Below are positions 6,813 to 58,382 of a stretch of 58,382 bases of DNA, piece by piece. The notes under the pieces were generated by a model. The model was not told the origin of the DNA. It worked only from the letters and a program-made list of their open reading frames with translations, and ran no database searches. Origin of the DNA: a virus (taxonomy: Duplodnaviria; Caudoviricetes); the IMG/VR virus record IMGVR_UViG_3300009158_000057, positions 1-58,382 of that record. One strand, given 5' to 3'. Both the position numbers and the translations under genes were made by a program. Position 1 is the stretch's first letter; each line of letters begins with the position of its first letter.

Positions 6813-9300
6813 TTAGAAAGTCCTCCAATGTTGACATGTGTTCTGTTTTCCATTTAATAACACTAGTGATGCTCCTAATAGGATCAAAGAAAGCTTTATC
6901 GAATTGTAGATTGTAATCAATGTATCTCTCTAGCTTCAACTCTGGTGGTAGAACACCAGGACAAGAGATTACATTTTCACGAAACGAATTCGGCAGCTTC
7001 ATATAACAGAACTTGATCTTCTCGCCTTCTTTAACTGTTGCGTACTTACGATCAAGATTGTTTTCACGCAGTAGAGCATTATACACTAGGGCTCCACGCA
7101 CATGCATCGGTGTGCCGTCAGTGTATATCTTTTTTTCATCACTGTATTTAAGAATGCCGTTGCAGCCACGAGGAAAGGCAACCTCTTCAAACTTCAGCTT
7201 AGAGAATTCATCTCTAAACGTATCAATAAACTCAATAAGCTTACCGTTGTTACCTTGCATGATGATCTTGAGTGCAAGCTTAATCTTCTCTCGACACGAA
7301 TACGGCGTCGAGGACTTAACAGCTTCGATGCCTTTCATGTATAGCTTAGGCTCATCATACTTAACGCCTTCGCTGTCGTACACGTTCATGATGTACTTCT
7401 TCTTCGCAATGAAGATAGCAGTGTCACAAATGTTCTCACGCTTCATCTTCATCTGATTGACATAAGAGTTTGTGTATTCTTTCAGGCGTTCAAACGACTT
7501 GTTAATCACAGGCTCTAGTTTATCAGAACAGACCTTGTTCACAAACTCTGTGACTTTCTGCACATCTGACGTATCAGTAAACACAGACTTGACTAGATCG
7601 TCCAGCGAGACGAACACAGAGTCGGTGTCGCAGTACACAACATACTGCTTATCTGTTGTCTTAAGAAGTTTGTTAAGATAAGCATCAATGTCTTGTGCAA
7701 CCCAACGAATAGCTAACTGACCATGAATAGTGATACCTTCTGCGTAATCATTCTGATAGAAACGAAACGCTGGATTACCAGTAGCACCGAACAAACTGTT
7801 AAGAACAATCTTCTTGACTAGCTGTAGATTGTGATAGCGAGAAACACCGTTAGAATCGTTAGCTTGCTTTGCTTCTTTCTTAAGTTTGTTATACTCGACA
7901 CGTTCAGCATACATCTTCAACACGATCTCAGGGAATAGACCTTGCTTCTCTTTGTTCCACAAAGCGCCGTTGGCAGACATTGCAACATTATTTTCTTGTA
8001 GAATAGATTGCTTGTCAAACTTACCTGCAAGTAGTTCATCAACATTCATCGTGTTAACTTTACCAGCATGTGTTTCTGGCGACATGTTGTTCTGCACGAT
8101 CAAAGAAGGATACAGACTGTTAACGTCAAACGTTGTGATCCACTTGTGCATACCTACTTTTGGATCACGTACATAAGCGCCAGTGAACTGCGAGTCTTTT
8201 GTGCTTTCTCTCTGCAACGGTACAACGATCTTACGATCTAGCAGATAGTTGTGAATGATGATATCCCACAGTCTAATGCTTGTGAACATATCATCATACT
8301 TGATCTTAGCGTCATAAGCAAGAGTAAGACCTAGAGCAAGAAGACCTAGCTTCTCTTCTAGACGATCAACTAGTTCAACGTCATGAATATTATATTCGAT
8401 ATACTTTTGAAAGTTGTTGCGACACATCTCAGTCAAGCTACCGTACTCAGAGTAGTCTAGCTTACGTTCACCTAGCTCAGTAAAAGCAACGTGATCTAGT
8501 CTATAGCTTTCTTGTTGTGTGTATGTAAACTTCTTGTAGATGCGTAGATAGTCTAGAACACAAACACCGAGCGGTCGATACGTCTGCTGCTCTTTGCCGT
8601 TACCGTGAATGTCGATCTTCTTTTCGTCTAACATTCCCCACGGCGACAAACGCTTTGCATGTTCTTTATCTAGCACACGTTCAATACGATTGATGATGTA
8701 CGGTACGTCAAAGAACTCAATGTTCCAGCCAGTAATAACATCTGGATCAACAGCCTGCCAGTAACCGATGAACTCTTGAAGCAGCCGCTTTTCATCGCTG
8801 CACTTCACATACTTCACATTAGATTGATGGACTTCAAACTCACCGCAGCCAAACGTTGTGATCTTGTCTTTGACTTTACACGTGATAGCAGTGATTGGTT
8901 GATTTGCAGTTTCAATATTTGGAAAGCCAGTATCATCGCCATCGGGCGCACATTCGATATCTAGATTGATGATACGAACTGTGTCTAGGTTGTACTGAAC
9001 TTTGCCTGGATACTCATCGTTGAGAAACGGATACAGAAATGAATTCAGACCGTAGATGCTCATGCCACCTACGTCTTTGTATCGCTCGACAAAATCTTTT
9101 GCTTCTCGAATGTTCTCAAAAGAGATTTTCTCAGCAGACTTGCCCTCTAGAGTTTTGTACTCAGAGTTTTTCTCTTTGCTAGAGACAAACAAGTATGGAG
9201 CGTAATTGACTTTGCGTTGAATTCTGCGGCCGTTGTTGTAACCACGCAGAAAGATAGTGTTGCCTCGTTGCGAGACCTCAGTGTAAAAACTCTCAAACAT
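6802..9300 (-). CDS. 43: Family B DNA polymerase gp43
   Basis: Exo motifs DIE and GWNIEFFD; Pol motifs DVNSLYPS, KIVLNSLFG, YCDTDS, KKKY; uninterrupted. Confidence 0.98.
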   Translation of the reverse strand: MFESFYTEVSQRGNTIFLRGYNNGRRIQRKVNYAPYLFVSSKEKNSEYKTLEGKSAEKISFENIREAKDFVERYKDVGGMSIYGLNSFLYPFLNDEYPGKVQYNLDTVRIINLDIECAPDGDDTGFPNIETANQPITAITCKVKDKITTFGCGEFEVHQSNVKYVKCSDEKRLLQEFIGYWQAVDPDVITGWNIEFFDVPYIINRIERVLDKEHAKRLSPWGMLDEKKIDIHGNGKEQQTYRPLGVCVLDYLRIYKKFTYTQQESYRLDHVAFTELGERKLDYSEYGSLTEMCRNNFQKYIEYNIHDVELVDRLEEKLGLLALGLTLAYDAKIKYDDMFTSIRLWDIIIHNYLLDRKIVVPLQRESTKDSQFTGAYVRDPKVGMHKWITTFDVNSLYPSLIVQNNMSPETHAGKVNTMNVDELLAGKFDKQSILQENNVAMSANGALWNKEKQGLFPEIVLKMYAERVEYNKLKKEAKQANDSNGVSRYHNLQLVKKIVLNSLFGATGNPAFRFYQNDYAEGITIHGQLAIRWVAQDIDAYLNKLLKTTDKQYVVYCDTDSVFVSLDDLVKSVFTDTSDVQKVTEFVNKVCSDKLEPVINKSFERLKEYTNSYVNQMKMKRENICDTAIFIAKKKYIMNVYDSEGVKYDEPKLYMKGIEAVKSSTPYSCREKIKLALKIIMQGNNGKLIEFIDTFRDEFSKLKFEEVAFPRGCNGILKYSDEKKIYTDGTPMHVRGALVYNALLRENNLDRKYATVKEGEKIKFCYMKLPNSFRENVISCPGVLPPELKLERYIDYNLQFDKAFFDPIRSITSVIKWKTEHMSTLEDFLNGN

Positions 9301-44883: not shown

Positions 44884-46830
44884 TTATCCGTTAGAGTTTT
44901 TTAGTTTATCTACTTCTGCCGCTAATACGTTGATAGCAGCAAAAGCAACAGCGACAAGTTTTAGATAATCAACGCCTAGTGTACCGTCTGGTTTAACTCT
45001 TGTAGCAACTGGGAACGCAGCAAGTACGTCTTGAGCAATAACGCCGAAGTCAGATTTCTGTCTGTAGTAAGCGTCTGCGCCGCCATGCTTTTCAAGATAC
45101 TCGTCTGTCCAATCAAACGTTTTACCGCCAATTGCAGCTACAATAGCTAAAGCATTTTGAATATCTTGAATATTTTCTTTTAATGAAATGTCAGAGCCGT
45201 TGTACGCAACAATGTTACCTGAAGCACCGATGTCACCGTTGACTTGAATACTGGCGTTGAATGTGCCGCCGCCGAAAGGATTACCTGAAGAACCAGTGTC
45301 GCCCTTAGATCCTGTGTAACCAATGCCGCCTGCCCCACCATTAGAGCCGTTGCTGCCATCAGAACCTCTAGAGCCAGTGTAACCGATAGGTCCTTGAATA
45401 CCCTGTGAGCCACCACCACCTTGAGAGCCAGTGTACCCGATAACACCTTGAGAACCTGTGTCGCCTTTAGAGCCTGTATAACCGATGCTGCCTTGTGAAC
45501 CAACAGAACCATTATAACCAGTCGAGCCAGTGTCGCCCTTTGAGCCATTATAACCAGTGGAGCCCTGTGAGCCTGTGTAACCAATTGAACCAGTATAGCC
45601 AATAGAGCCAGTTGCACCGACAGAGCCAGTGTAGCCAGTGGGTCCTTGATTGCCTACTGAGCCGCCGTAACCTACGCCAACAGAACCAGTATAGCCTAGT
45701 GAACCAGTATAGCCAAGAGAGCCTGTAGCGCCAACAGAGCCGTTGTAGCCAGTAGAGCCAGTTGCGCCGACAGAGCCACCGTAGCCGATAGAGCCAGTAT
45801 AACCGATGGGCCCTTGATTGCCTACTGAGCCGTTGTAGCCTACAGAACCACTATAACCAATGCTGCCAGTGTAGCCGATAGGACCTTGAGAACCAGTATA
45901 GCCAGTGCCACCCAAAGAGCCTGTATAACCCTGTGGACCAACAAGTGACGTTGCCCAGTAGAGAGATGTGCCGTTTGTAGAAAGAACTTGGCCTGATGTT
46001 CCAGGGCCGCTATTCGCAATAATAGCTACGCCAGCATTGAAGATGACGTTAGCAGCATGAGTTAGCTGGCCAGAAAGAGTGTAGTCTGAGCTAGTTGTCA
46101 CATAGTTTGTAGGTGTAACGCCATTTAGATATGAAGCGTTGTTTGCTGTACCTGAAAATGCAGTCGAGTTAATCGAAGTGTTGACAGAAGAGTTGCCAAT
46201 GACTAGACTGGAAGTACTGATATAGACATTAGAACCAACAGTAACATTGGCAGAAGCAGCTACAGTCGTGCCAGAGACGTTACCAGTATGAATACCAGTC
46301 GTATTAGCAGTTACAGTAGTAGCATAGACGTTAGTTGTGATAACGTTAGAGGACGCATTTATAGTTGTAGCAACAACGTTGCCGAACAGCGTAGGTGTAA
46401 ATACGTTAGCTGACGCATTGACTACAGAAGCAGAAACGTTACCAGTATGAATACCAGTTGTGTTTGCTGTTACTGTTGTTGCGTAGACGTTAACTGTGAT
46501 GACATTAGCTGCGGCATTGATAGTCGTAGCATACACATTAGTCGTAATGACGTTTGAAGACGCATTGACCGTGATGCTGACTGTGTTGCCGTAGAATACG
46601 GGAGATGTTACGTTAGCAGATGCGTTGACAAAGCCAGTGACAGTAGTGTTGCCTGCCGCGAAGGTAGTCGTTACAACTGCTGGACCTTGAACGTTAGCTG
46701 AACCAACAATCGTTAGCGCGGCATCTGGAGAGGCTGTATTAACACCGACTTTGCCATTGTTCGCAAACAATAGATTGGTGTTAACTGTTAGCCCATTTTT
46801 TACAACAAATGAAGAATTACTACTAGCCAT
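44884..46830 (-). CDS. Tail fibre with Thr/Asn/Val repeats, GYxGS collagen-like segment and C-terminal S74 intramolecular chaperone
   Basis: FVVKNGL N-terminus; Gly-X-Y run; SDISLKENI...FDW...GVIAQDV...VDY...coiled coil. Confidence 0.88.
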   Translation of the reverse strand: MASSNSSFVVKNGLTVNTNLLFANNGKVGVNTASPDAALTIVGSANVQGPAVVTTTFAAGNTTVTGFVNASANVTSPVFYGNTVSITVNASSNVITTNVYATTINAAANVITVNVYATTVTANTTGIHTGNVSASVVNASANVFTPTLFGNVVATTINASSNVITTNVYATTVTANTTGIHTGNVSGTTVAASANVTVGSNVYISTSSLVIGNSSVNTSINSTAFSGTANNASYLNGVTPTNYVTTSSDYTLSGQLTHAANVIFNAGVAIIANSGPGTSGQVLSTNGTSLYWATSLVGPQGYTGSLGGTGYTGSQGPIGYTGSIGYSGSVGYNGSVGNQGPIGYTGSIGYGGSVGATGSTGYNGSVGATGSLGYTGSLGYTGSVGVGYGGSVGNQGPTGYTGSVGATGSIGYTGSIGYTGSQGSTGYNGSKGDTGSTGYNGSVGSQGSIGYTGSKGDTGSQGVIGYTGSQGGGGSQGIQGPIGYTGSRGSDGSNGSNGGAGGIGYTGSKGDTGSSGNPFGGGTFNASIQVNGDIGASGNIVAYNGSDISLKENIQDIQNALAIVAAIGGKTFDWTDEYLEKHGGADAYYRQKSDFGVIAQDVLAAFPVATRVKPDGTLGVDYLKLVAVAFAAINVLAAEVDKLKNSNG

Positions 46831-46871: not shown

Positions 46872-47891
46872 TTATGTTTGTTCTACCGCAACCTCTGGAA
46901 CTACTTCTTGAGTTGGTTCTACTGCTACTTCAGCAACTTCTGCTGGAATCTCTTCTACTGGCTCAGGCCCGCCGCCAAGAGTAATCGTATACGTCTTGGC
47001 TTTCTCTTCTAGACACTGATTAATGTAATCAACACCAGAGTACTCGCGGTACTCTTCTAGGACAGCATCATCTAAATTAGCAATAAACTGTTTTAGATAC
47101 TGATGCGACTTGTAGATTCTTTCGCCTAGAACATGCTCTGGAATAACAGGCTGAACACTCTGCTTTGTGATGTAGCCGTGAGTGCCTAGAAAGTGATAAC
47201 AGTGCATTGATCTAGGATGATACATGTGATAGCCAGCAGCAAAAGAAGATAGCGTTAGAATTTGTTCCTCACCCTCAAAGAAGATGTACGGATCAACGCC
47301 GACTTGTTTTATCCAAGAAGCAGGGAACATAGTATTACCTGCACAGATATGAATTGCAGGCATAACATCGTCTGTCGGTGAAATGTGATCTCCGTGAGCA
47401 GAGACGATATCGCAGTCTGCACGATAATCAAAGTATCGTACTCGACACGTTAGCTTCATGTCTTCTAATTGCTTGGTTGCTTTACCGTCAAGAAATTCCC
47501 AGTTCTTACAGCTTCCAGTGATGATGATTTTACCATCATTGTGCTTTTCATTTGCTTTTCTGTAATCATTGATGAGTTTTCTATCCCAACCCTTATCAAA
47601 CAACATATGTGAGTCGATCTGATACAGAAAGTCTTCATCTTTCATCTGAAGAGAATTAACATGTCGAGCAAAGCCAACGCCATAAGAATACTCAGGATTA
47701 ATCCTCATGTATCTAATATTTCTCTGAGCGATAAGATCGGGCGCTAACACTTCTAAGCTATCAGCAGCTACAGTCTGCTCAAAGACGCCGACAGTGATTT
47801 CGTGCCTACCAGACGCACTTTCTAGAATACTATCTATTGTTAGCTTTAAAAGAGGATCTCTGTACGAGACAATGCTTACAAATATTTTCAT
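46872..47891 (-). CDS. GT60 / Gnt1-like GlcNAc transferase
   Basis: IFVSIVSYRD, GVGFARH, QIDSHMLFDKGWD, CAGN.F, FFEGEE. Confidence 0.8.
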   Translation of the reverse strand: MKIFVSIVSYRDPLLKLTIDSILESASGRHEITVGVFEQTVAADSLEVLAPDLIAQRNIRYMRINPEYSYGVGFARHVNSLQMKDEDFLYQIDSHMLFDKGWDRKLINDYRKANEKHNDGKIIITGSCKNWEFLDGKATKQLEDMKLTCRVRYFDYRADCDIVSAHGDHISPTDDVMPAIHICAGNTMFPASWIKQVGVDPYIFFEGEEQILTLSSFAAGYHMYHPRSMHCYHFLGTHGYITKQSVQPVIPEHVLGERIYKSHQYLKQFIANLDDAVLEEYREYSGVDYINQCLEEKAKTYTITLGGGPEPVEEIPAEVAEVAVEPTQEVVPEVAVEQT

Positions 47892-47897
47892 AATTTC

Positions 47898-48704
47898 CTA
47901 CTTCTTGAATTTTTCATTGTCTGGTAAATCATCTAAATCGGATTCTGGATCTTCCACTACGTTTTGTTCAGAGTTGCCGTCGTGCAGTTTTAATCCCATA
48001 GGCTTTTTATTTAAAATATATTTTCTATAAAATTGTTTTGCACTTGAGAAAATAGTATTTGTGTAATCAAATTGTTCTGGTGTTGCTGGTCCATAACCAC
48101 CCGTAATGCCATCTTTAATATGAAGAAAGGGCATCACTTGATACAATGGTGTACCGGCTTTGATAGTAAAATTGCATTTTCTCTTAATTGAGAAAATAAA
48201 ATTCATAGAAGAATAATTGTTATAATCAACAATACCCGGATAAACAAAGATATCATCTAGAAAAGGAGCATGATATGTTGCTGGTAAAAACACCATGGAC
48301 ATTCCTGGCTTATGAGAAACAACATGCCATGGAGATTCAATATGCCACACTTGAAAAGGAATATTATCTTGAGGCGTAAATATTCCAGCTCCTATTTCAT
48401 TAGACATTTTCCTTGGAGGTGGAAAATGTGATTGTCTGCCAGTGCCCATTGTTACCATAACGCCAGACTCATTAGCCATAATGTTGATATCATCCCAAGC
48501 AGGAATAATGTATCCGTAGTTTTTTAAATCTACCATTCCTGGGCATTGAGCAAAATCAAGTTTACCAGTACTCTTTACTTGCTTATCACCAAAGTGTACT
48601 TTAACTTGTGCTGCTTTTTCAACAGGATGCATCAGATATGCTTTTCGAGAGCAATCTACAAATAATACATCTTTTTCTTTTTTCTTCAGGAAATTAAACA
48701 TCAT
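47898..48704 (-). CDS. Uncharacterised protein, DUF6065-like, paralogue B
   Basis: CPGMVD...GYIIPAWDD, PGIVDY, IKAGTPLYQVMPF. Confidence 0.65.
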   Translation of the reverse strand: MMFNFLKKKEKDVLFVDCSRKAYLMHPVEKAAQVKVHFGDKQVKSTGKLDFAQCPGMVDLKNYGYIIPAWDDINIMANESGVMVTMGTGRQSHFPPPRKMSNEIGAGIFTPQDNIPFQVWHIESPWHVVSHKPGMSMVFLPATYHAPFLDDIFVYPGIVDYNNYSSMNFIFSIKRKCNFTIKAGTPLYQVMPFLHIKDGITGGYGPATPEQFDYTNTIFSSAKQFYRKYILNKKPMGLKLHDGNSEQNVVEDPESDLDDLPDNEKFKK

Positions 48705-49426
48705 TTTCTAGGTTCCCTCAATTCATTAGTATAATAACTTAATCTAGAACCTTGAATAATTTGCATCTTCTCAATTTCTTTAGCTTCTTTGGCTTTCATC
48801 TTTCTAATTTTTGGAAATCTATCAAAAGAATTTCTCTTAATAGGAATAGCAGTCACTAGAGGAGTACCAGCACGTAGTACGTCATCAAAATTGCCTGTAT
48901 GCCAGATAGCTGGAAAGTTAACTTCCTTTGGATATCTATCTGTGTCTACAAGACCGCCGAGACAAGTGAAGTTTGGATTAAATGCGTTGATTGGCGGAAG
49001 AAACAAAGTAGACCAGCCAGGCGCAGTTTTAATTACCCAATAGTTGATAAACTTGATTGCGTCTGCATCACGGAAACCACCAATTTGATCTTTGTTATGA
49101 AACTCAGCAAGACCCATATTTGGTGGATTTGTGACTTTAATAATGCTTCTATCAATGTTTGTGTGTACACCAAGATCGCCCTGTAGGGGAATAATAAATC
49201 CCAAAGAATGTACGTCTAAAAGGGGCATACATTTCTTTGAAGTCCATGGTTTACCACCAAACGGATCTCTTGGCGCATCATCAATATATGGGGGAACTTT
49301 TTTCCACCAGTCTGGAATTTTTCTATTTGCCGGTACTGGTTCTGGGATAACACCTTCCCATCTAGGATGACAATAAAATTCTATTACTTCATTACGAAAT
49401 AACAGTTTCAAATCTTTGAGTTTCAT
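48701..49426 (-). CDS. Uncharacterised protein, DUF6065-like, paralogue A
   Basis: IPDWWK, KKCMPLLD...GFIIP, KTAPGWS, GLVDTD, LRAGTPLVTAIPIKR. Confidence 0.65.
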   Translation of the reverse strand: MKLKDLKLLFRNEVIEFYCHPRWEGVIPEPVPANRKIPDWWKKVPPYIDDAPRDPFGGKPWTSKKCMPLLDVHSLGFIIPLQGDLGVHTNIDRSIIKVTNPPNMGLAEFHNKDQIGGFRDADAIKFINYWVIKTAPGWSTLFLPPINAFNPNFTCLGGLVDTDRYPKEVNFPAIWHTGNFDDVLRAGTPLVTAIPIKRNSFDRFPKIRKMKAKEAKEIEKMQIIQGSRLSYYTNELREPRK

Positions 49427-49432
49427 AATATA

Positions 49433-50032
49433 TTACTCTCTTTCGCCCTCAATCCAGAATACAATTGTCTTTCTGGTTCCTTTGGTTACTGGTTTAACTC
49501 TATGTGGAAACATTGAAGAAAAGAATACAACGTCACCAGCATTTCCTTTGATGATCTCTGTACGATCTGGACTGCCAGTAGTCATGATTTCTAGCTCGCC
49601 GCCTTCATACTCGTCTGGATTATTTAGGAACATTACGCCGCTAATTTTTCTTTCGAAGTTATGCCAAGCAGGAAATACGTCAATATGCCAGTCGTAATGG
49701 CCGTTGTTTTTAGCTTTGTATATTGTATATTGAAAAGGAGAAAGCCCTGCAATATTAAGCATAAAATGATCATAATTGATTCTAGGAATAAAATTTGCAA
49801 TTTTTTCAAAAATCCAACCAGAATTTTCATCTGGCATAAAATTTGAAACATCACAACTTCTTACTTCTGGAGATTCTTGTGCTTGACCAATACCAATGCC
49901 TATAACTCCCTTTTCAAACTTCATGATCTTTTCAAGAAAAACAATTTTTTCTATCTCATCAGAACTAAACATCTCATTACATACACAAAATTTATTAAAA
50001 ATAGCGCCAATTTTATTCACTCTCAAAGTCAT
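49433..50032 (-). CDS. 2OG-Fe(II) oxygenase (prolyl-hydroxylase/PKHD type)
   Basis: HYDWHID, RKISG, EYEGGEL, FPHRVKPVTKGTR; AGGAGA SD before ATG 50032. Confidence 0.9.
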   Translation of the reverse strand: MTLRVNKIGAIFNKFCVCNEMFSSDEIEKIVFLEKIMKFEKGVIGIGIGQAQESPEVRSCDVSNFMPDENSGWIFEKIANFIPRINYDHFMLNIAGLSPFQYTIYKAKNNGHYDWHIDVFPAWHNFERKISGVMFLNNPDEYEGGELEIMTTGSPDRTEIIKGNAGDVVFFSSMFPHRVKPVTKGTRKTIVFWIEGERE

Positions 50033-50046
50033 GCTAATTCTCCTGT

Positions 50047-50739
50047 TCAATCAAATGTTATATTTTTACTCGCAAAAAATGCATAGTCTGTTGCATAATA
50101 GGCTTTAATTGCTGAAATCTCTTCTGGAGTTAAATCTGCGACATTTACATGTTTAACTGATACGTTATCTCTACGCAATTCTTTATAGCTAATACCTAAC
50201 GCATCTGTTACTTTTCTTACTTCATTATTTATATCACGAAAATCAAGCAATGTCAAATTAGGATGGTCTAACCAATGTGTTTGATTATGAAAAACTCCGA
50301 GTCTCGCAAAGACTTTTTCTTTTGGATCATCGCGTAATTGTGTCAATACAGTAATAAAATCTGTTATCGAAAGTCTATATTGATGATTGTTCCATGTTAT
50401 GCCTTGTGCGATTACATTCACAGCATCGGCTTCTGGAACTGAAACATTATGGAATTTCTCATACATAAACAACAAAATAGGACTGTTGTAATATCCTTTA
50501 AATCCGCCATCTGAATTCAGTTCAAAGAGGCACATGTGATTATACGCAGAAACAAATTTTTCTATAGGATTTCTATAAAAACAAAATAAAGCATAATCTG
50601 TTTCTTCTGTTAGAACAGAATGTCTAATGTCGTGATAACAAACATCTAGACCAGAGTCTTTGTATGTATTATAGATTGAAGTCCCGCCAGTTTTGGGATT
50701 AAAATACAGAATTGTTTTATTGCTATTAGATATTAACAT
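50047..50739 (-). CDS. Sulfotransferase (Sulfotransfer_2-like)
   Basis: PAPS-binding motifs PKTGGTS (5'-PSB) and RNPIEKFVSAY (3'-PB); C-terminal YYATDY..F. Confidence 0.8.
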   Translation of the reverse strand: MLISNSNKTILYFNPKTGGTSIYNTYKDSGLDVCYHDIRHSVLTEETDYALFCFYRNPIEKFVSAYNHMCLFELNSDGGFKGYYNSPILLFMYEKFHNVSVPEADAVNVIAQGITWNNHQYRLSITDFITVLTQLRDDPKEKVFARLGVFHNQTHWLDHPNLTLLDFRDINNEVRKVTDALGISYKELRRDNVSVKHVNVADLTPEEISAIKAYYATDYAFFASKNITFD

Positions 50740-51488
50740 TTTTCTGCTACCACAAAAATAACTGTGTTTGTAGTTAAATTTTTAATCTCTATTCTACCAG
50801 TATATTCTGGATTATTGATAATGTCAAAAATATATCTATCTTCATTTATTTTAAATTGTTTATTTCGTGGAAGATTAAATGGAATTATCATTTTTTCGCT
50901 AGTTGTATCTAGTACAATAGATGTATTGGCATCTAGGTTGCAATATTTAGCTGTGTATGTTTCATTTCTTTTTATTGCAATGAAAAATGTTTCCGCTGCT
51001 TCTTGCTTTGGAATAGCCACTTCCACGTTCATTGATGTTGTCATCCAATCTCGTTTAACATCAATCCATGTGTTATTTGCTGATGGTTCCGCTGTGATAT
51101 GCACAACAAATTTATTGTCAAGTTCTTCATAGTCATACAAATCTGGATTATCAATAGAATCAATGTAATTTGTTATTCTATTTTTTTCGTCTCTTGATGC
51201 ATCATCGACAGGATTGTAATCGTATGTGATATCTGTTTTGCCAGATAAAACAATAAACATCTTATTATTTACATTTTGAAATGTATTCAAATAAAAGCTG
51301 TCTAACATTCCATTGGCACATTTCATGTATCTTGTGTTGGTAGCAGCATCATCAACGGCGCACACTGTATTCTCATTAGAGTTTATTAGTTGTATTACAT
51401 GTGGATGATCGTGCCCAGCTCCAATACCCACTTTCTGGCGAAAAATAATTCCAGTTGGTTGTGTTGGCTGTGTAAATGGTCCTGGCAT
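50733..51488 (-). CDS. Hypothetical protein (251 aa)
   Basis: ORF track; co-oriented and tightly packed in the cassette. Confidence 0.7.
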   Translation of the reverse strand: MPGPFTQPTQPTGIIFRQKVGIGAGHDHPHVIQLINSNENTVCAVDDAATNTRYMKCANGMLDSFYLNTFQNVNNKMFIVLSGKTDITYDYNPVDDASRDEKNRITNYIDSIDNPDLYDYEELDNKFVVHITAEPSANNTWIDVKRDWMTTSMNVEVAIPKQEAAETFFIAIKRNETYTAKYCNLDANTSIVLDTTSEKMIIPFNLPRNKQFKINEDRYIFDIINNPEYTGRIEIKNLTTNTVIFVVAEKC

Positions 51489-51494
51489 AGTAAA

Positions 51495-53048
51495 TTACCT
51501 TGATCTTACGGTGACAGAACCACCGGTACCTACAGTTACAGGATAAGTTGCTCCGTCTGGATAGCTATACTGAGACACTGTAGTTGCTGGCGTGTATGCA
51601 CCAGGCTGTGCAGGAGAGTTACTTGCTGCTGCGCCCGCTGCATTGACACCCAATGCACCAGAACTGTTGCCCGCATTTGCTGCATTGTATGTTGCGATTG
51701 TATTTACGTTGAACGAGGCAATGTTATTGACGTTATATGTAGCAATGTTATTGACGTTATACGATGCTGCGTTCTGTGTGTTGTATGTTGCAATGTTTTT
51801 AGCGTTATATGTTGCAATATTTTGCGTATTGTATGTTGCAGGATTCTGAGAGTTATAGTTAGCATTGTTTACGTTGTATGATGCTGCGTTCTGTGCGTTG
51901 TATGCCGCAATGTTTTTAGCGTTATATGTTGCAATATTCTGAGGATTGTATGTTGCGGCATTTTGTGCGTTATATGTTGCTGGATTTTGTGCGTTATATG
52001 TTGCTGGATTTTGTGCGTTATACGATGCTGGATTTTGTGCGTTATATGCTGAAATGTTCTGAGAGTTATATGACGCAGGATTCTGCGGATTAAAACCAGA
52101 CACGGCATAGTTTGCGTTGCTGGCATTGTATGACGCAACGTTTTGTGCGTTAAAGCCATCAACGTTTTGCGGATTAAATCCATATACAGCGTAGTTTGGA
52201 TTGTTGCCATATCCAGTACAAGAATAGTTTCGTACATAAAATTGATAACCAAAACCAATTTCATAAAATGCAGGGCAGTCGGGCTGGGCATTCTGAGTGC
52301 CGTTTTGGAAAAAAGTCATATAGAAAAATTGAATTCTGTCGAATGATGTAACTTCCCAGTTGTAGTTATATGCATTATACGGATTGAACCCACTTACATC
52401 GTAGTTTGGATTATTTGAGTTGTAGTTTGCATTACTAGCATTATACGATGCGGCATTCTGCGGATTAAAACCAGACACGGCATAGTTTGGATTGCTGGCA
52501 TTGTATGACGCAGGATTTTGTGCGTTATATGCTGATACGTTCTGAGCATTGTATGACGCTACGTTCTGAGCATTGTATGACGCTACGTTCTGAGCATTGT
52601 ATGACGCTACGTTCTGAGCATTGTATGACGCTACGTTCTGAGCATTGTATGAAGCAATGTTGTTTACGTTGTAGTTAGCATTGTTTACGTTGTATGACGC
52701 TACGTTCTGAGCATTATATGCTGCGATACTTTGAGCATTGTATGTTGCAACAGTCTGAGCATTGTATGAAGCAATGTTGTTTACGTTGTAGTTAGCATTG
52801 TTTACGTTGTATGATGCTACGGTTTGAGCATTATATGACGCTACGTTCTGAGCATTGTATGTTGCGGCATTTTGTGCGTTATATGTTGCAATGTTGCCGA
52901 CAGTGTTTTGTCCACCAACGGCAGCTACGTCCATATCATATCTGCCGTAAGGCAGAGTTATGTTACTGGGAGCGTTAAAGATTTGAGTGCCAGTACCTGA
53001 AGCTCTCCAAGTCTTTTCTAACTCAAAGTTTTTTGTCTTATTGCTCAT
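51495..53048 (-). CDS. Tyr/Asn/Ala octapeptide-repeat protein, putative virion fibre or adhesin
   Basis: About 45 YNxxNxA(S/T)-type units in two arms around a unique aromatic core with two Cys. Confidence 0.8.
   Translation of the reverse strand: MSNKTKNFELEKTWRASGTGTQIFNAPSNITLPYGRYDMDVAAVGGQNTVGNIATYNAQNAATYNAQNVASYNAQTVASYNVNNANYNVNNIASYNAQTVATYNAQSIAAYNAQNVASYNVNNANYNVNNIASYNAQNVASYNAQNVASYNAQNVASYNAQNVASYNAQNVSAYNAQNPASYNASNPNYAVSGFNPQNAASYNASNANYNSNNPNYDVSGFNPYNAYNYNWEVTSFDRIQFFYMTFFQNGTQNAQPDCPAFYEIGFGYQFYVRNYSCTGYGNNPNYAVYGFNPQNVDGFNAQNVASYNASNANYAVSGFNPQNPASYNSQNISAYNAQNPASYNAQNPATYNAQNPATYNAQNAATYNPQNIATYNAKNIAAYNAQNAASYNVNNANYNSQNPATYNTQNIATYNAKNIATYNTQNAASYNVNNIATYNVNNIASFNVNTIATYNAANAGNSSGALGVNAAGAAASNSPAQPGAYTPATTVSQYSYPDGATYPVTVGTGGSVTVRSR
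52536..52652. repeat. Perfect 24-bp tandem repeat (4 copies plus 21 nt)
   Basis: TACGTTCTGAGCATTGTATGACGC; encodes YNAQNVAS on the minus strand. Confidence 0.9.
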
Positions 53049-53063
53049 TTATCTTTTCCAATA

Positions 53064-56000
53064 TTACGATGCGTTTTTCACTGCAAGAGATACGATCCAA
53101 GTTGTCCCGCCGTTATATGTAAGTACTGACCAAATGTCAACGCCGTTTGCTGTCGTTGTAGCCGGAGGAGATACTGCCCCTGCATACTTAGAGCCTGCAG
53201 GCCAAGTGATTGTTCTGCCACCAGTTGCGTCTTGTGTTGCAATGATAGTGAACGCAAAGGCACGACCAGATGGTGCGTTAGAGAACGTGAATGTTGTGTT
53301 GCCTGTCATTGACAAGTTGAACATGTTGCTTGTTGACAAGTCTAGTGTCACAGCACCAGTTGAGCTTGAGTTAGCACAGAACTCTGATGTTGCTTTGAAG
53401 ACTGGAGCAATCAAGTGATTGTTGCCCAGTGCAACGTTTGCACTAGCAGTGAACGCCGTTGTATTAATAACGAATGTTGAGCCTACTGTGTGTGAAGCAG
53501 CATTGACAACACCAGAGTGATAAACACCAGTTGTGTTTGCTGTAAAGTTAGTAGCGTTATACGATACAGCATTGACACCAGCAGAGCCAGTTGAGTATTG
53601 ACCAGTGGTATTTGCAATCCAAGAAGAACCAACTGTAAACGAAGCAGCATTAATTCTACCTGTGTGCCAGATGCCCGTGTCGTTAGCAGAAAGTACAGGA
53701 TTGACTGTTGTGTTTGCCTGCGTTAGAGTTGTGGCAGTGATAACAGTATTGACTGTGCTATTTGAGCTTACGAGATATGCTGTTGTGTTAGCTTGTAGCA
53801 AGCTACCGACGTTAGCAGAAGTCGTTGCATAGAATGTTGCTGTGTTGACTTGACCGCTTACGTTTGCATACTGTGCTGATACGTTAGCAGTTACAGTAGT
53901 AGCGCCGACAGTAATAGCAACAACGTTAGCAGTTACAGTAGTAGCGCCGACAGTAATAGCAACAACGTTAGCAGTTACAGTAGTAGCGCCGACAGTAGTG
54001 GCAACAACGTTACCAGTATGAATACCAGTTGTATTAGCAGTTACAGTAGTAGCATAAACGTTTGTTGTAATAACGTTAGAAGATGCATTAATTGTTGTAG
54101 CAAAAACGCCAGTTGTGTTAGCTACCAAACTAGTGCCAACGCTGTATGACGTAGCATTGATTGCGCCATTAACGTTTAGTGTATTAGCTGAGAAGTCAAA
54201 CGTTAATCCATTGTTGCCTACTAGTACGCCGTTAGCGTTGTAGATAACTTGAGTGTTAGAGCTTGCAGCACCAGCAGAACCAGTGTAACCAATTACACCT
54301 TGAGAGCCAGTGTAACCAATAGAGCCAGTATAGCCACTGGCGCCGAATGAACCACCGTAACCAGTGTCACCCTTAGAACCAGTGTAACCAGTAGAACCGT
54401 TGTAGCCAGTAGAGCCTGTATCACCCTTTGAGCCAGTGTAACCAATAACGCCTTGAGAGCCTGTGTAACCCACAGAGCCATCATAGCCCCTAGAGCCTGT
54501 GTAACCAATGTCGCCCTTAGAGCCTGTGTAACCAATGTCGCCCATATCACCAGTTCTTGTGAATGTAATAATTGTATCAAGACTATTGCTAAAAGATGTT
54601 GCGCCGTTTAGCCACGCAACAGGAACTTGAAAGTAATCTGACGGATGACTATGTGAGCCAGTGATTGAAAAATACGCAAAGTTTTGTGTGTTTGCCTTTT
54701 CTTCAAGTTTAAATGTGCCTTTAATTGATGAAGTAGAATCATCGATAGTGTTTAGATAATTGAAACAGTTTGCAGAAGCATAGTCTAAGAAATCAATATA
54801 AAGTGTTGTTGCTACCGACAAGTCGGTGTTACTAAATTTGAGATAACCAGCAGTTGGATCTGAATTTGTTGTATTTGTGCTATAGTAATACTCGAATGTA
54901 GCGCCACCAAATTCGCCTTGTGGACCCTTAGAACCAGTGTAACCAAACGAGCCATTGTAGCCTGTATCGCCCTTAGAACCAGTATAACCAATAGAGCCAG
55001 TATAACCAGTAGAGCCAAATGAACCGTCGTAACCAGTGTTACCCTTAGAACCAGTATAACCAATAGAGCCAGTATAACCAGTAGCGCCAAATGAACCGTC
55101 GTAACCAGTGGAGCCCTGTGAGCCTGTGTAACCAATTGAACCAGTATAGCCAATAGAGCCAGTATACCCTAATGATCCAGTGTAACCGAATGAACCATCA
55201 TAGCCTCTTGAGCCAGTATAGCCAATGTCGCCCTTAGAACCAGTGTAGCCGATGCTGCCATCGTAACCAGTGTTACCAAAAGAGCCATCATAGCCTCTCG
55301 AACCGCCATATCCTAGTGAACCAGTGTAACCAGTTGCGCCGAATGAGCCACCATAACCGAACGAGCCAGTATAGCCGATGCTGCCTGTATAGCCAAATGA
55401 ACCGTCGTAGCCTGTGTTGCCCTTAGATCCATTGTATCCAGTGTCGCCCTTAGAGCCAGTGTAACCAAACGAGCCATCATAGCCAGTTAATCCAGTATCA
55501 CCCTTAGAGCCTGTGTAACCAATGTCGCCTTTTGAGCCATTGTATCCAGTATCACCCTTAGAGCCTGTGTAACCAATGTCGCCTTTTGAGCCAGTATAAC
55601 CAATTACACCTTGAGAGCCTGTGTAACCAAAAGAGCCATTGTATCCAGTGTCGCCCTTAGAGCCAGTGTAACCGAATGAACCATCATAGCCCGTATCGCC
55701 CTTAGAGCCAGTGTAACCAATAACGCCTTGATTACCCTGAGAACCAGTGTAACCAATAGAACCTGTATACCCGATTACGCCCTGAGAGCCGTTATAGCCA
55801 GTTGCGCCTTGTGAACCAGTGTAACCAATATTACCTTGCGAACCCTGAGAGCCAGTGTAACCAATAACGCCTTGAGAGCCGCCGTAGCCTAGTGAACCAG
55901 TGTAACCGATAGAGCCTGTATCGCCCTTAGAGCCAGTGTAACCAAACGAGCCATTGTAGCCTGTATCGCCCTTAGATCCTTGATAGCCAGTGTCGCCAAT

Positions 56001-56474
56001 GTCACCGGTTCTTGCAAATGAGACAATAGATAGAGTGTTGTTAGCTAGAGTTGTTCTGCCCGAAAGCCACGCAATTGGAACTTGGAAATAAGGACCAGTA
56101 CCCTCATGGTGAGCGCCAACAATAGAGAATGTAGCAAAGCTTGAGTTATTGCCTGCAATGCTTAATGTAAAATGACCTTTAACTACAGAAGTAGAATCGT
56201 CAATTGTCGTTAAGAAGTTATATACGTTTGCGCTAGTAGCATCAGTAAAATTGATATAAAGAGTATTAGCAGAGCTAAATGATGTATTATTAAATGCTAG
56301 ATATCCAGCAGTGGGATCAGTATTGGAAGTAGGTGTGATATAGTTATAGCTATACGCTTCGCCGCCCAAACCGCCTTGTTCGCCTCTAGATCCAGTGTAG
56401 CCTGTATCGCCCTTAGAGCCAGTGTAGCCTACAAAGGATCCGGATAATAGATCACTTAAATTGGTCGTTGTCAT
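53064..56474 (-). CDS. Long collagen-like tail fibre (1136 aa)
   Basis: Extensive GYxGSx Gly-X-Y repeats, two copies of a roughly 120-aa globular domain (DPTAGYL...DDSTS..KG...RTGD), Thr/Asn/Val region, C-terminal QDATGGRTITWP domain. Confidence 0.88.
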   Translation of the reverse strand: MTTTNLSDLLSGSFVGYTGSKGDTGYTGSRGEQGGLGGEAYSYNYITPTSNTDPTAGYLAFNNTSFSSANTLYINFTDATSANVYNFLTTIDDSTSVVKGHFTLSIAGNNSSFATFSIVGAHHEGTGPYFQVPIAWLSGRTTLANNTLSIVSFARTGDIGDTGYQGSKGDTGYNGSFGYTGSKGDTGSIGYTGSLGYGGSQGVIGYTGSQGSQGNIGYTGSQGATGYNGSQGVIGYTGSIGYTGSQGNQGVIGYTGSKGDTGYDGSFGYTGSKGDTGYNGSFGYTGSQGVIGYTGSKGDIGYTGSKGDTGYNGSKGDIGYTGSKGDTGLTGYDGSFGYTGSKGDTGYNGSKGNTGYDGSFGYTGSIGYTGSFGYGGSFGATGYTGSLGYGGSRGYDGSFGNTGYDGSIGYTGSKGDIGYTGSRGYDGSFGYTGSLGYTGSIGYTGSIGYTGSQGSTGYDGSFGATGYTGSIGYTGSKGNTGYDGSFGSTGYTGSIGYTGSKGDTGYNGSFGYTGSKGPQGEFGGATFEYYYSTNTTNSDPTAGYLKFSNTDLSVATTLYIDFLDYASANCFNYLNTIDDSTSSIKGTFKLEEKANTQNFAYFSITGSHSHPSDYFQVPVAWLNGATSFSNSLDTIITFTRTGDMGDIGYTGSKGDIGYTGSRGYDGSVGYTGSQGVIGYTGSKGDTGSTGYNGSTGYTGSKGDTGYGGSFGASGYTGSIGYTGSQGVIGYTGSAGAASSNTQVIYNANGVLVGNNGLTFDFSANTLNVNGAINATSYSVGTSLVANTTGVFATTINASSNVITTNVYATTVTANTTGIHTGNVVATTVGATTVTANVVAITVGATTVTANVVAITVGATTVTANVSAQYANVSGQVNTATFYATTSANVGSLLQANTTAYLVSSNSTVNTVITATTLTQANTTVNPVLSANDTGIWHTGRINAASFTVGSSWIANTTGQYSTGSAGVNAVSYNATNFTANTTGVYHSGVVNAASHTVGSTFVINTTAFTASANVALGNNHLIAPVFKATSEFCANSSSTGAVTLDLSTSNMFNLSMTGNTTFTFSNAPSGRAFAFTIIATQDATGGRTITWPAGSKYAGAVSPPATTTANGVDIWSVLTYNGGTTWIVSLAVKNAS
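53881..54006. repeat. 42-bp tandem repeat (3 copies, third imperfect)
   Basis: ACGTTAGCAGTTACAGTAGTAGCGCCGACAGTAATAGCAACA; encodes VAITVGATTVTANV. Confidence 0.85.
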
Positions 56475-56521
56475 ACTACTCTATCCCTTGTTCGTTTTAG
56501 TCTGTTGATTAAACTCTTGCT

Positions 56522-56529
56522 TATTTATA
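56522..56529 (-). promoter_or_regulatory. T4 late promoter for the fibre and enzyme operon
   Basis: TATAAATA 47 nt upstream of the ATG at 56474. Confidence 0.8.
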
Positions 56530-56541
56530 TCTACACAAAAA

Positions 56542-58382
56542 TTAATAAGATCCTAATGATATTCTTTTCCATGTGTTTGTTGCGACACAAACATAAAGAT
56601 AAGAAGTATCATACGCAAGTTGCCCTGCTATTCCTGTTGCAGTTGACACTGGAGATGCAGATTGACCATAAGCGGCGCCAATAGAACCAGTATACCCTAT
56701 GCCAATTGAGCCAGTGTAGCCGATGCTGCCAGTATAGCCAGTAGAACCTAATGAGCCAGAGTAACCTCTTGTGCCTGTAGATGTTGCAACTTCCCATGTG
56801 GTGCCGCTATAGATGAACTCTACTTTAGCGTTTGTAATGTTGATTACAAGATCAGTTGCAGAACCGTCAATTGTGCTACCGTTTCTCGCAACTGTTAGTG
56901 CATTGACAGCAAAATAATTGCCAGCATCTACAATAGCAACATAATTTCCTGACGTAGGTGAAGCAGGTAAAGTTACAGTGAATGAACCACCGCTGGTGTC
57001 TGCCATCACACCGTCAAGATTAGACGCTGTATAGTTTGCAGTTTTGTTTACCCATGTAATACCGAAGCCTGCATTGCCCTTAGAGCCAGAGTAACCTCTT
57101 GTGCCTGTAGATGTTGCAACTTGCCAGACTGTACCATCCCAAACAAATTCTACTTTTGCATTGTGAATGTTAAGACTGATGCTGCTGAAGCCACCCTCAA
57201 TGTTATTGCCGTTGCCGCCAACAGTTAGAGGATTTACTGACCAGTCGCCATCGTCTAAAACAACTACGTAGTTGCCTACAGTGGGCGTTGCAGGAAGTAA
57301 TAACGTCCATGAACCGCCAGTTGTGTCAGCAATAATGCCGTCTAGATTAGATGTTGTATAGTTTGCACTCTTGTTCAGCCAATTCACGCCGTTGCCGGCA
57401 GCACCTTGAGAACCAGAATAACCTATAGAGCCTGTATAGCCAGCAGAGCCAGCAGAGCCGACTGAACCATTGTAACCAGTTGAACCCTGATCGCCTTTAG
57501 AGCCAGAGTAGCCTATGCTGCCTGTGTAGCCAACTGAACCGTTATATCCAGTAGAGCCATTGTAGCCGTTATTTCCATCAGTGCCTCTAGAGCCTGTGTA
57601 GCCAACAGAGCCAGTGTAGCCAAACGAGCCTTGATAACCTAGATTGCCTTGATCGCCCTTTGAGCCTGTGTACCCAATAGAGCCAGTAGCGCCAACTGAG
57701 CCGTCATAGCCAGTAGAGCCAATGTCACCCTTTGAGCCAGAGTAACCAACAGAACCATCATAGCCTCTAGAGCCGTTATAGCCAGTTGCGCCAGTAGAAC
57801 CGACAGAGCCGCCGTAGCCTAGTGAACCAGTGTAGCCAATAATGCCCTGTGAACCGACAGAGCCATTATAGCCAACAGAGCCAGCATAGCCTAGTGAACC
57901 AGTGTAGCCAATAACGCCTTGTGAACCGACAGAGCCGCCGTAGCCGATGCTGCCTGTATAGCCAATAGAGCCAGTCGCGCCAACTGAGCCGTCATAGCCA
58001 GTAGCGCCTGTATCGCCCTTTGAGCCGCTGTAGCCAATAGAGCCATTATAACCAGTTGAACCGTTATAGCCTACGCCAATAGAACCAGTATAACCAATAG
58101 AGCCAGTTGCGCCTACAGAACCATTATAACCAGTCGAGCCTGTATCGCCTTTAGAACCAGAGTAACCAATAGAGCCGATGCTGCCTTGTGAACCAGTGTA
58201 ACCAACTGAACCGTTATAGCCAACTGAACCGTTATAGCCAGTAGCGCCTGTTGCGCCAACTGAGCCGTTGTAACCAACTGAACCGTTATAGCCTACGCCA
58301 ATAGAACCAGTATAACCAACTGAACCGTTATAGCCTACGCCAATAGAACCAGTATAACCAACTGAACCGTTATAGCCAGTAG
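56542..58382 (-). CDS. Collagen-like tail fibre, 3' part (start lies beyond window end)
   Basis: The frame of ORF 56542..57387 stays open through GYxGS repeats to the window end; two T4 gp34/gp10-like modules (DT.GGS.T..LPA.PT.GNYV...D); C-terminal YLYVCVATNTWKR. Confidence 0.88.
   Translation of the reverse strand, partial: TGYNGSVGYTGSIGVGYNGSVGYTGSIGVGYNGSVGYNGSVGATGATGYNGSVGYNGSVGYTGSQGSIGSIGYSGSKGDTGSTGYNGSVGATGSIGYTGSIGVGYNGSTGYNGSIGYSGSKGDTGATGYDGSVGATGSIGYTGSIGYGGSVGSQGVIGYTGSLGYAGSVGYNGSVGSQGIIGYTGSLGYGGSVGSTGATGYNGSRGYDGSVGYSGSKGDIGSTGYDGSVGATGSIGYTGSKGDQGNLGYQGSFGYTGSVGYTGSRGTDGNNGYNGSTGYNGSVGYTGSIGYSGSKGDQGSTGYNGSVGSAGSAGYTGSIGYSGSQGAAGNGVNWLNKSANYTTSNLDGIIADTTGGSWTLLLPATPTVGNYVVVLDDGDWSVNPLTVGGNGNNIEGGFSSISLNIHNAKVEFVWDGTVWQVATSTGTRGYSGSKGNAGFGITWVNKTANYTASNLDGVMADTSGGSFTVTLPASPTSGNYVAIVDAGNYFAVNALTVARNGSTIDGSATDLVINITNAKVEFIYSGTTWEVATSTGTRGYSGSLGSTGYTGSIGYTGSIGIGYTGSIGAAYGQSASPVSTATGIAGQLAYDTSYLYVCVATNTWKRISLGSY
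58271..58377. repeat. Perfect 42-bp tandem repeat (about 2.5 copies)
   Basis: TAACCAACTGAACCGTTATAGCCTACGCCAATAGAACCAGTA. Confidence 0.85.

Follow-up and report, generated by a model that had tools for sequence, protein, structure and literature searches.

Layout of the proposed hairpin protein

The window analysed here is a 58-kb viral contig (58,382 nucleotides (nt); IMG/VR record IMGVR_UViG_3300009158_000057), estimated to represent about one third of a genome. Its minus strand carries T4-type core genes (major head protein, portal, sheath, large terminase, neck proteins gp13–15, DNA polymerase and UvsX), and the major head protein is 60–68% identical to its counterparts in T4-like phages of Stenotrophomonas, Caulobacter, Sinorhizobium, Pelagibacter and Methylophilales. 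Public sequencing runs containing this stretch carry freshwater metagenome labels. On the same strand lies the gene of a 517-residue repeat protein, P0001 (hereafter the hairpin protein), whose family is best read as an undescribed, tail-fibre-associated protein family of T4-like phages. The gene and its parts are organized as follows.

51495–53048, minus strand: whole coding sequence of the hairpin protein P0001, an open frame of 517 residues (stop codon 51495–51497)
52884–53048, minus strand: N-terminal base half, residues 1–55 (family hidden Markov model (HMM) E 2e-31; predicted local distance difference test score (pLDDT) 88–98; strands 20–24, 28–31, 39–44, 53–55)
52380–52883, minus strand: arm 1, residues 56–223, 168 residues in 23 pieces with the consensus YNAQNVAS
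52455–52512, minus strand: arm-1 copy of a 58-nt direct repeat, residues 179–198, containing the outer YAVSG landmark
52194–52379, minus strand: tip core, residues 224–285, with 18/62 residues aromatic and two cysteines (Cys258, 52275–52277; Cys277, 52218–52220)
51690–52193, minus strand: arm 2, residues 286–453, 168 residues in 22 pieces
52080–52137, minus strand: arm-2 copy of the 58-nt direct repeat, residues 304–323, containing the outer YAVSG landmark
51498–51689, minus strand: C-terminal base half, residues 454–517 (family HMM E 4.9e-25; pLDDT 89–98; strands 463–465, 468–470, 485–491, 501–505, 511–516)

Cutting before every aromatic residue divided P0001 into five parts: a 55-residue N part, a 168-residue arm 1, a 62-residue core, a 168-residue arm 2 and a 64-residue C part. 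Arm 1 is built of 15 octamers, 5 heptamers, 2 pentamers and a terminal FNP, and arm 2 of 18 octamers, 2 heptamers and 2 pentamers, with residue identity at a lag of 8 reaching 0.53 and 0.58, respectively. Tandem Repeats Finder reported 24-nt arrays of 14.9 and 15.4 copies, together with 117-nt higher-order repeats in both arms. An earlier description of this DNA, made by a model from the letters alone (the sequence-only reading), had proposed two repeat arms flanking an aromatic core with two cysteines, and this arrangement is present. Its arm lengths of about 175 and 181 residues were correct in being similar, but with slightly different border placement both arms measure 168 residues here. 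Counted from the borders of that reading, the pentamers are indeed the second and sixth pieces out from the core, and the 58-nt direct repeat with 2 mismatches lies where it had been placed, translating to (V/P)ASYNASN(A/P)NYAVSGFNPQN in each arm.

An 11-residue landmark, N[PA]NY[AD]V[SY]GFNP, occurs twice per arm (starting at residues 186 and 213 in arm 1; at residues 283 and 311 in arm 2). The landmark centres add up to 506 in the inner pair and 507 in the outer one, and for the arm ends the total is 509 both at the base and at the tip, so that a single out-and-back register fits all four landmark positions and the arm ends. The YNVNNAN units, claimed to be mirror-placed, agree less well: they do occur in both arms, but their centres add up to 516, about one unit out of register, and arm 1 holds an extra copy (residues 80–86) without a partner in arm 2. 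The observation of a mirror-symmetric repeat protein is otherwise confirmed; its statistical weight is carried by the family comparison and not by the landmarks inside P0001. Long open frames in another frame or on the opposite strand also run within the arms (51869–52291, minus strand; 52487–52678 and 51592–51849, plus strand), and are most likely by-products of repeat composition rather than genes.

The protein family: arms, base and tip

Searches with P0001 returned no match in PHROGs, NCBIfam or Pfam (0 Pfam families at E up to 0.1), and eight short family members had no relevant match in Pfam at E up to 10. Among 50,697 GenBank phage records, neither P0001 nor P0063 had a tblastn match, and megablast of window positions 49000–57000 against GenBank phages found none. 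A related-locus search of viral contigs recovered no relative with P0001 alone as query and 17 loci with the family alignment A1. Metagenomic protein searches yielded 47 matches at E ≤ 1e-3 among 8,000 candidates scored and, in a further search, 139 representatives at E ≤ 1e-3. When 188 proteins were scanned with half-domain HMMs, the N half was found in 74, the C half in 77 and both in 59. The conserved N part reads F-x-L-E-K-T-W ... F-N-A-P ... Y-G-[KR] ... G-G and the conserved C part A-L-G-V ... Y-P-D-x-x-T-Y-P-V-T-V-x-x-G-G, and a C-P-x-P ... Y-x-C-T-P motif is frequent in the core. Members with both halves range from 159 to 672 residues, the shortest (159–187 residues) being little more than base. 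Their repeat units are wholly different among subfamilies (7, 8, 10–14 or 19 residues), and many are rich in proline and glycine. Among the papers listed by literature searches, and going by their titles and abstract openings, none appeared to concern this family.

Some relatives depart from this layout. Nine proteins (P0002–P0005, P0008, P0010, P0011, P0013 and P0014) consist of repeats followed by a C-terminal Hint/intein-like domain (precomputed PF01079, PF14890); the N half is present in only P0002, P0003, P0005 and P0008 of these, and the C half in none. Another ten (P0015–P0018, P0020, P0022, P0023, P0031, P0032 and P0081) have the C half without the N half and begin directly in repeats; such relatives may be truncated gene calls or split genes. 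Tandem family paralogues, each with its own central core, occur at three loci: L011 (7995–11206; 500 and 554 residues), L017 (7980–11784; 580 and 672) and L018 (3427–7231; 584 and 668).

Arm lengths were compared using the Cys pair as an objective tip marker, an approach that replaced a local-repeat-score segmentation too noisy for weak-repeat members. Of 66 members with both anchors, 23 have a single Cys pair. Here the stretch between the N anchor and the first Cys (63–287 residues) tracks the one between the second Cys and the C anchor (47–256 residues) with a correlation r of 0.967 and a slope of 0.89; r is again 0.967 once 2 near-duplicates are left out (n = 21). The midpoint of the Cys pair falls at 0.445–0.597 of the insert in 23/23 members, and its standard deviation across the first 21 members (0.031) was matched in 0 of 100,000 draws from a uniform distribution over 0.1–0.9. 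The offset between the distances before and after the tip is roughly constant at ~27 residues, as would follow if the core reaches further before the first Cys than after the second. Every subfamily is balanced, with units ranging from 7 to 19 residues; since these repeats are unrelated, the expansions would be independent events, each of them balanced.

Comparison of relatives reveals how the length changes are distributed. P0021 and P0026, identical at 368/368 aligned residues, differ by one 16-residue indel in each arm, and P0062 and P0063 by a single central deletion of 69 residues that takes 6+6 units to 3+3. A 479-residue orthologue shows gaps of 20 (arm 1) and 21 (arm 2) residues relative to P0001 and lacks the outer landmark of either arm, that is, both copies of the 58-nt repeat. 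Paired indels were likewise observed in P0134/P0099 (27/27), L010p/L009p (10/10), P0045/P0039 (28/27), L012p/L014p (21/19) and L012p/P0165 (245/245), and indels of 19/19 also occur in close relatives. In a two-core subfamily, arm 1 is as long as both later segments combined, to within 3–6 residues, in 7/7 members, and a hydrophobic patch of arm 1 is level with the second core in 5/7. The expectation that arm lengths co-vary in homologues was thus borne out over the 23 one-Cys-pair members. These comparisons show that the two repeat arms have, as far as sequence variation can tell, been kept equal in length during evolution, and that everything between the base halves is a single excursion, 50 to ~570 residues long, out to a non-repetitive tip and back.

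The base was modelled with AlphaFold2 for P0001 (with 49 family rows) and for a 269-residue relative, P0049 (with 26 rows). Both proteins gave pLDDT of 88–98 over the N and C halves, with 8–9 beta strands between them; in P0001 the confident regions are residues ~20–55 and ~450–517, with strands contributed by both halves. The proposal that the termini are two halves of one domain is supported by these models and by the members of 159–187 residues, and the N and C parts are shown, at the level of prediction, to form one small beta-sandwich base. The AlphaFold monomer check called for in the sequence-only reading thereby yielded a confident joined base, but no confident model of the insert.

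Fold likeness of the base was assessed by structural alignment, in which all scores lie in the range that the tool calls common (Z < 8). The two base halves superpose jointly on single jelly-roll domains, with weak scores throughout (best Z 4.7 and 5.6). VIA-align against 7ypx_A, the Pam3 fibre, gave Z 4.3 (root-mean-square deviation (rmsd) 2.9, 79 aligned residues, 28% identity) and Z 5.0 (rmsd 3.2, 81 aligned, 26% identity), these identities being the highest in those structural-alignment tables. With the P0049 model as query, 7ypx_A also heads the Foldseek list, at a non-significant E of 1.7. TNF/C1q family chains recur at ~Z 4 and ALK chains at Z 4.7, again weak scores, and weak rows in BFVD are enriched in phage proteins named 'glycine-rich domain-containing'. 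A search of the ESM Atlas by features gave no usable match, and a structure row at TM 0.69 was disregarded, as it rests on a model with a mean pLDDT of 0.46. In PDB profile searches, alignment A1 retrieved no fibre, its sole match being the Sup35 prion repeat (E 0.31), and alignment A3 retrieved nothing. The Sup35 segment is the Asn/Gln/Tyr-rich repeat region of a yeast prion amyloid; the likeness is one of composition, but it prompts the question whether Asn ladders and Tyr stacking play a part in the arms. For the further proposal that the base is a Gly-rich phage adhesin domain, the structural likeness is confined to weak fold matches (Pam3, Z 4.3–5.0), and the sequence searches lend it no support. 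A split base resembling Gly-rich adhesins is a reasonable description of the predicted fold; membership is not established, because the sequence searches were negative and the P0001 insert is not glycine-rich.

Variability is concentrated at the tip. Contigs L002 and L003 show 43 differences in 10,590 nt, of which 41 fall inside 184 nt (8642–8825) that code for the core of the orthologue. All four bases take part in these substitutions, most of which are synonymous (41 nt yield 9 amino-acid changes) and some of which switch serine codons between families, a pattern suggesting that a diverged allele, flanked by the repeat arms, was imported by recombination. A diversity-generating retroelement was considered as the source of these differences and rejected, given the involvement of all four bases and the mostly synonymous changes. 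Relative to the 479-residue orthologue, P0001 is identical at 40/55 residues in the N half, 45/64 in the C half, 108/168 and 100/168 in the arms and 28/62 in the core. In line with the variable tip foreseen in the sequence-only reading, the core is the least conserved part, and judged by these comparisons the tip is the most variable and most exchangeable part of the protein. Short-read contigs end within the arms, so that natural variation in arm length cannot be read from them; a 440-nt 'skip' joint in X10 was disregarded, having just 30 letters on one side.

Neighbouring genes and possible modification

The hairpin locus sits among fibre genes and adjoins the neck genes gp13–15. The same region is called the host recognition cluster in pelagimyophages and cyanomyophages (PMC7029224). 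The neighbours of the hairpin gene are listed below.

53067–53468, minus strand: conserved C-terminal domain (about residues 1003–1136) of a 1136-residue collagen-like tail-fibre protein (gene 53064–56474)
50733–51488, minus strand: 251-residue protein without assigned function, between the hairpin gene and the cassette
50047–50739, minus strand: sulfotransferase (PF03567 E 3.3e-6), between the hairpin gene and the cassette
49433–50050, minus strand: 2-oxoglutarate (2OG)-Fe(II) oxygenase of prolyl-4-hydroxylase/PKHD type (PF13640 E 1.3e-18)
48701–49426 and 47898–48704, minus strand: two DUF6065/phrog_7084 paralogues, members of the cassette
46872–47891, minus strand: glycosyltransferase, the last cassette gene (phrog_24687 E 1.5e-17)

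The hairpin gene starts 15 nt past the stop codon of the 1136-residue fibre gene. The C-terminal domain of this upstream fibre (~100–135 residues) is homologous in 17/17 related loci, where it ends 0–16 nt before the family gene, and its PHROG matches are the C-terminal ends of tail-fibre families (E 2e-11 to 1e-3). Downstream, every locus that extends far enough (15/15) has the 2OG-Fe(II) oxygenase; the two DUF6065 paralogues occur in 15 and 14 loci, respectively, and the glycosyltransferase in 12. This cassette was observed at 46872–50050 of the window and at loci L003, L004 and L006–L018. The 251-residue protein and the sulfotransferase before it are confined to the P0001 phage and its closest relatives: homologues of the former occur only in L002/L003, and a close homologue of the latter (39% identity) is found in L003, L002 ending before it and the L007/L008 copy being 26% identical.

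Profile matches of the oxygenase in the PDB include PKHD-type hydroxylases (E 1.2e-11) and prolyl 4-hydroxylases (2e-7 to 3e-4), among them the chlorella virus enzyme (E 2e-7). The median proline content of family inserts is 12.5%, and x-Pro-Gly motifs are numerous in them. From the conserved gene order and the proline content it is fair to suppose that the hairpin protein may be a substrate of the neighbouring enzymes, as the sequence-only reading had proposed; such a role is plausible.

Three collagen-like fibre proteins are encoded in the window (53064–56474, 56542–58380 and 44884–46830), with Tyr-, Thr- and Ser-rich triplets of the GYTGSKGDTGY type. Proline accounts for 1/489, 0/327 and 6/219 residues of the collagen-like G-X-Y runs, and this near-proline-free collagen composition is unusual next to a prolyl-hydroxylase-like gene.

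A sequence search of the PDB with DUF6065 found no relative, and the idea that DUF6065 is a hidden relative of 2OG oxygenases is unsupported (hhalign probability 0.2). Among the 50,697 GenBank phage records, DUF6065 occurs only in 49 records of haloarchaeal tailed viruses, at 33.8–36.2% identity among the matches listed. In one of these, HRTV-5 (L019, KC292022, 20187–34780), the DUF6065 gene 36 adjoins the baseplate and tail-fibre module, which suggests a wider connection between DUF6065 and tail fibres.

A proposed fold-back stalk and its alternatives

We favour, with moderate confidence, the reading of the hairpin protein as a fibre-associated adhesin with a length-tunable fold-back stalk and a variable tip, probably serving as a host-recognition probe. 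The base would dock onto the conserved C-terminal domain of the fibre encoded just upstream, and the two arms would lie side by side and antiparallel as a thin stalk, ~50 nm long if the 168 residues were extended or ~10 nm if each unit formed one 4.8 Å rung. The aromatic two-Cys core at the distal end would act as the knob that contacts the host. Gain and loss of repeat units would tune the length of the stalk, with only those changes persisting that leave the arms about equal, and the repeats would supply homology for recombination that exchanges the tip between phages. More speculatively, the oxygenase, the two DUF6065 proteins and the glycosyltransferase may modify the Pro-, Asn- and Tyr-rich stalk.

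Several observations weigh against this reading. In both P0001 and P0049, AlphaFold2 assigned the insert pLDDT of 35–45 (<50) without secondary structure, which leaves room on structural grounds for a disordered insert, and the arms are not in contact in any model. The 16-residue indel between P0021 and P0028 is confined to arm 1, and the L007 and L008 proteins, identical at 345/345 aligned residues, differ by a 13-residue indel in arm 2 only. Matching of length changes in both arms accordingly holds for most indels but has these two one-arm exceptions, of 16 and 13 residues, and a mismatch of about one or two units appears to be tolerated. More distant pairs can be unbalanced (for example, P0041/P0009, 18/56; L017p/L011p, 63/17), P0038 is an outlier with its midpoint at 0.445, and the compared pairs and members are phylogenetically non-independent. 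The insert lacks Cys in 25/66 members, indicating that the architecture does not depend on a Cys bridge. As for the tip, the L002/L003 differences reflect allele exchange, not positive selection; in read contigs from the window's own population the core and adjoining arm ends are 3.2–5.9% divergent against 0.6–3.0% in the flanks, a modest excess; and a 213-nt contig from the RNA library X19 is no proof of transcription. The P0001 insert itself has 3.9% proline and zero x-Pro-Gly motifs, so that most of its relatives would be better substrates for a prolyl hydroxylase.

The main rival, which we regard as rather unlikely, is that the protein acts as a tail-fibre assembly chaperone or as a transient cap for the upstream fibre, like T4 gp38, Mu/P2 Tfa or Pam3 gp25, and is either no receptor binder or not kept in the virion. 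With a fibre gene whose C-terminal domain is conserved lying directly upstream at 17/17 loci, the family gene occupies the usual chaperone position: T4 genes 37 and 38 are co-transcribed (PMC3004832), and the gp24/gp25 pair of Pam3 is a further example (PMC9608196). The hairpin protein moreover has no N-terminal baseplate-docking helix or other attachment domain before its base. However, it is not apparent why a chaperone would need lengths spanning a 4-fold range, matched arms, a swapped variable tip or tandem paralogues, and no chaperone family was matched in Pfam, PHROGs or NCBIfam. The best fold matches of the base, though all weak, are fibre and receptor-binding jelly rolls rather than chaperones.

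Less likely still is an insert that serves as a disordered, low-complexity tether or modification scaffold rich in Asn, Tyr and Pro, with unpaired arms and a core kept central for some other cause. The low AlphaFold2 scores of the insert and the mean pLDDT of 0.46 in the ESM Atlas are what such a tether would give, as are the compositional Sup35 match, the only one of the family profile in the PDB, and the tolerated one-arm indels of 13–16 residues. Disorder gives no reason, however, for a tip held at 0.445–0.597 of the insert while lengths vary 4-fold and repeat types are unrelated, nor for equal changes in both arms of near-identical proteins, and with both ends rejoining one folded domain the chain goes out and back regardless. 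A one-way fibre or solenoid with termini at opposite ends, such as a gp5-like triple-stranded beta-helix of octapeptides, is very improbable: it shares the 8-residue period of the T4 gp5 beta-helix (PMC3004832), but the N and C parts are confidently modelled as one domain and co-occur in 59 proteins, a central tip and matched arms would be meaningless in it, YNAQNVAS departs from the consensus of gp5 (Gly at a, Asn/Asp at b, Val at g), and other subfamilies use units of 7, 10–14 or 19 residues.

Beyond the favoured reading of a fold-back adhesin, there is a real chance that the P0001 family represents a new fibrous fold. In its fullest form, which we put forward only tentatively, it would be a new fibrous design: a self-registering two-arm stalk of 50 to ~570 residues that changes by concerted gain or loss of units, bears a recombining knob and is matured by dedicated enzymes. 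Host recognition proteins set the host range of phages and are mostly unannotated in the uncultured T4-like phages that abound in lakes and oceans; two short conserved half-domains around any repeat insert, together with a fixed gene neighbourhood, provide a recognisable handle on them. A structural rule of equal arms that is legible from sequence variation is a rare natural experiment in protein architecture, and would offer a simple design principle for length-tunable display scaffolds, the repeats giving adjustable reach plus a built-in route for tip swapping. Action of the hydroxylase and glycosyltransferase on the stalk, should it occur, would raise the question of how enzymes mature phage fibres; in the fullest reading, the cassette would be the first pathway of post-translational modification dedicated to a phage fibre that recognises the host.

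The fibre-associated host-recognition class is already known, as are chains that run to a tip and back (the gp37 needle; the loops of Pam3 gp24 and S16 gp38). Within Pfam, PHROGs, NCBIfam, the PDB, GenBank phages and the titles and abstract openings listed by literature searches, we found neither this family, with its closed base and single giant repeat hairpin, nor the matched-arm rule or the fixed cassette of oxygenase, DUF6065 and glycosyltransferase.

What the family may share with the tail fibre gp24 of cyanophage Pam3 (7YPX), and with the related glycine-rich domains of Salmonella phage S16 gp38 and the ALK receptor, is a predicted beta-sandwich that emits an out-and-back chain. From the TNF-like sandwich of Pam3 gp24, six Gly-rich loops project along the fibre axis and return, building a variable receptor-binding tip, and conservation drops toward that distal tip (PMC9608196). 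The six Pam3 loops are short, their 12 glycine-rich motifs being packed in a lattice, whereas the P0001 family makes one excursion of 50 to ~570 residues. The P0001 insert, with 2.7% Gly and no GGGGxGG motifs, is unlike a Pam3-type polyglycine-II lattice, and some of its relatives carry SGGNFAG-type units with 15–19% Gly. Unlike the Pam3 fibre, P0001 has no N-terminal helical shaft, and the PDB profile and Pfam searches gave no sequence-level link between the family and the Pam3/S16/ALK type.

The T4 gp37 needle offers a second likeness, in its thin distal needle, chain reversal and small receptor-contacting head. Its chains reportedly run to the tip and return; in P0001 a chain reversal at the distal tip is what the joined termini of the predicted base and the mid-chain tip would imply. 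gp37 is the end of a 1026-residue fibre protein, whereas P0001 is a separate protein closed by a base domain. The gp37 needle is held by His-coordinated iron (His-x-His sites), and P0001 contains zero histidine; gp37 also lacks tandem octapeptides and has no sequence or fold match to the P0001 family. PMC6957217 and PMC3004832 mention this needle with its iron sites.

The C-terminal beta-helix of T4 gp5 resembles P0001 in its octapeptide periodicity; its turns are rich in Asn, and the positions facing inward are small or hydrophobic (PMC3004832). gp5, however, consists of three intertwined parallel chains running one way, whereas the P0001 chain returns to its start and has another consensus. 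Adhesins of the gp38 kind (T2/S16 type) and fibre assembly proteins are likewise encoded by a separate gene right after the distal fibre gene. T2/S16-type gp38 caps the fibre and carries host specificity. This role is stated in part in PMC9608196. No homology to P0001 was detected for the gp38 type, and the architecture is different. Compared with collagen-like phage fibres, P0001 has 0 G-X-Y runs of at least 6 triplets and no PF01391 match, whereas the neighbouring gene at 53064–56474 does carry collagen-like G-X-Y runs (PF01391 E 1.5e-63).

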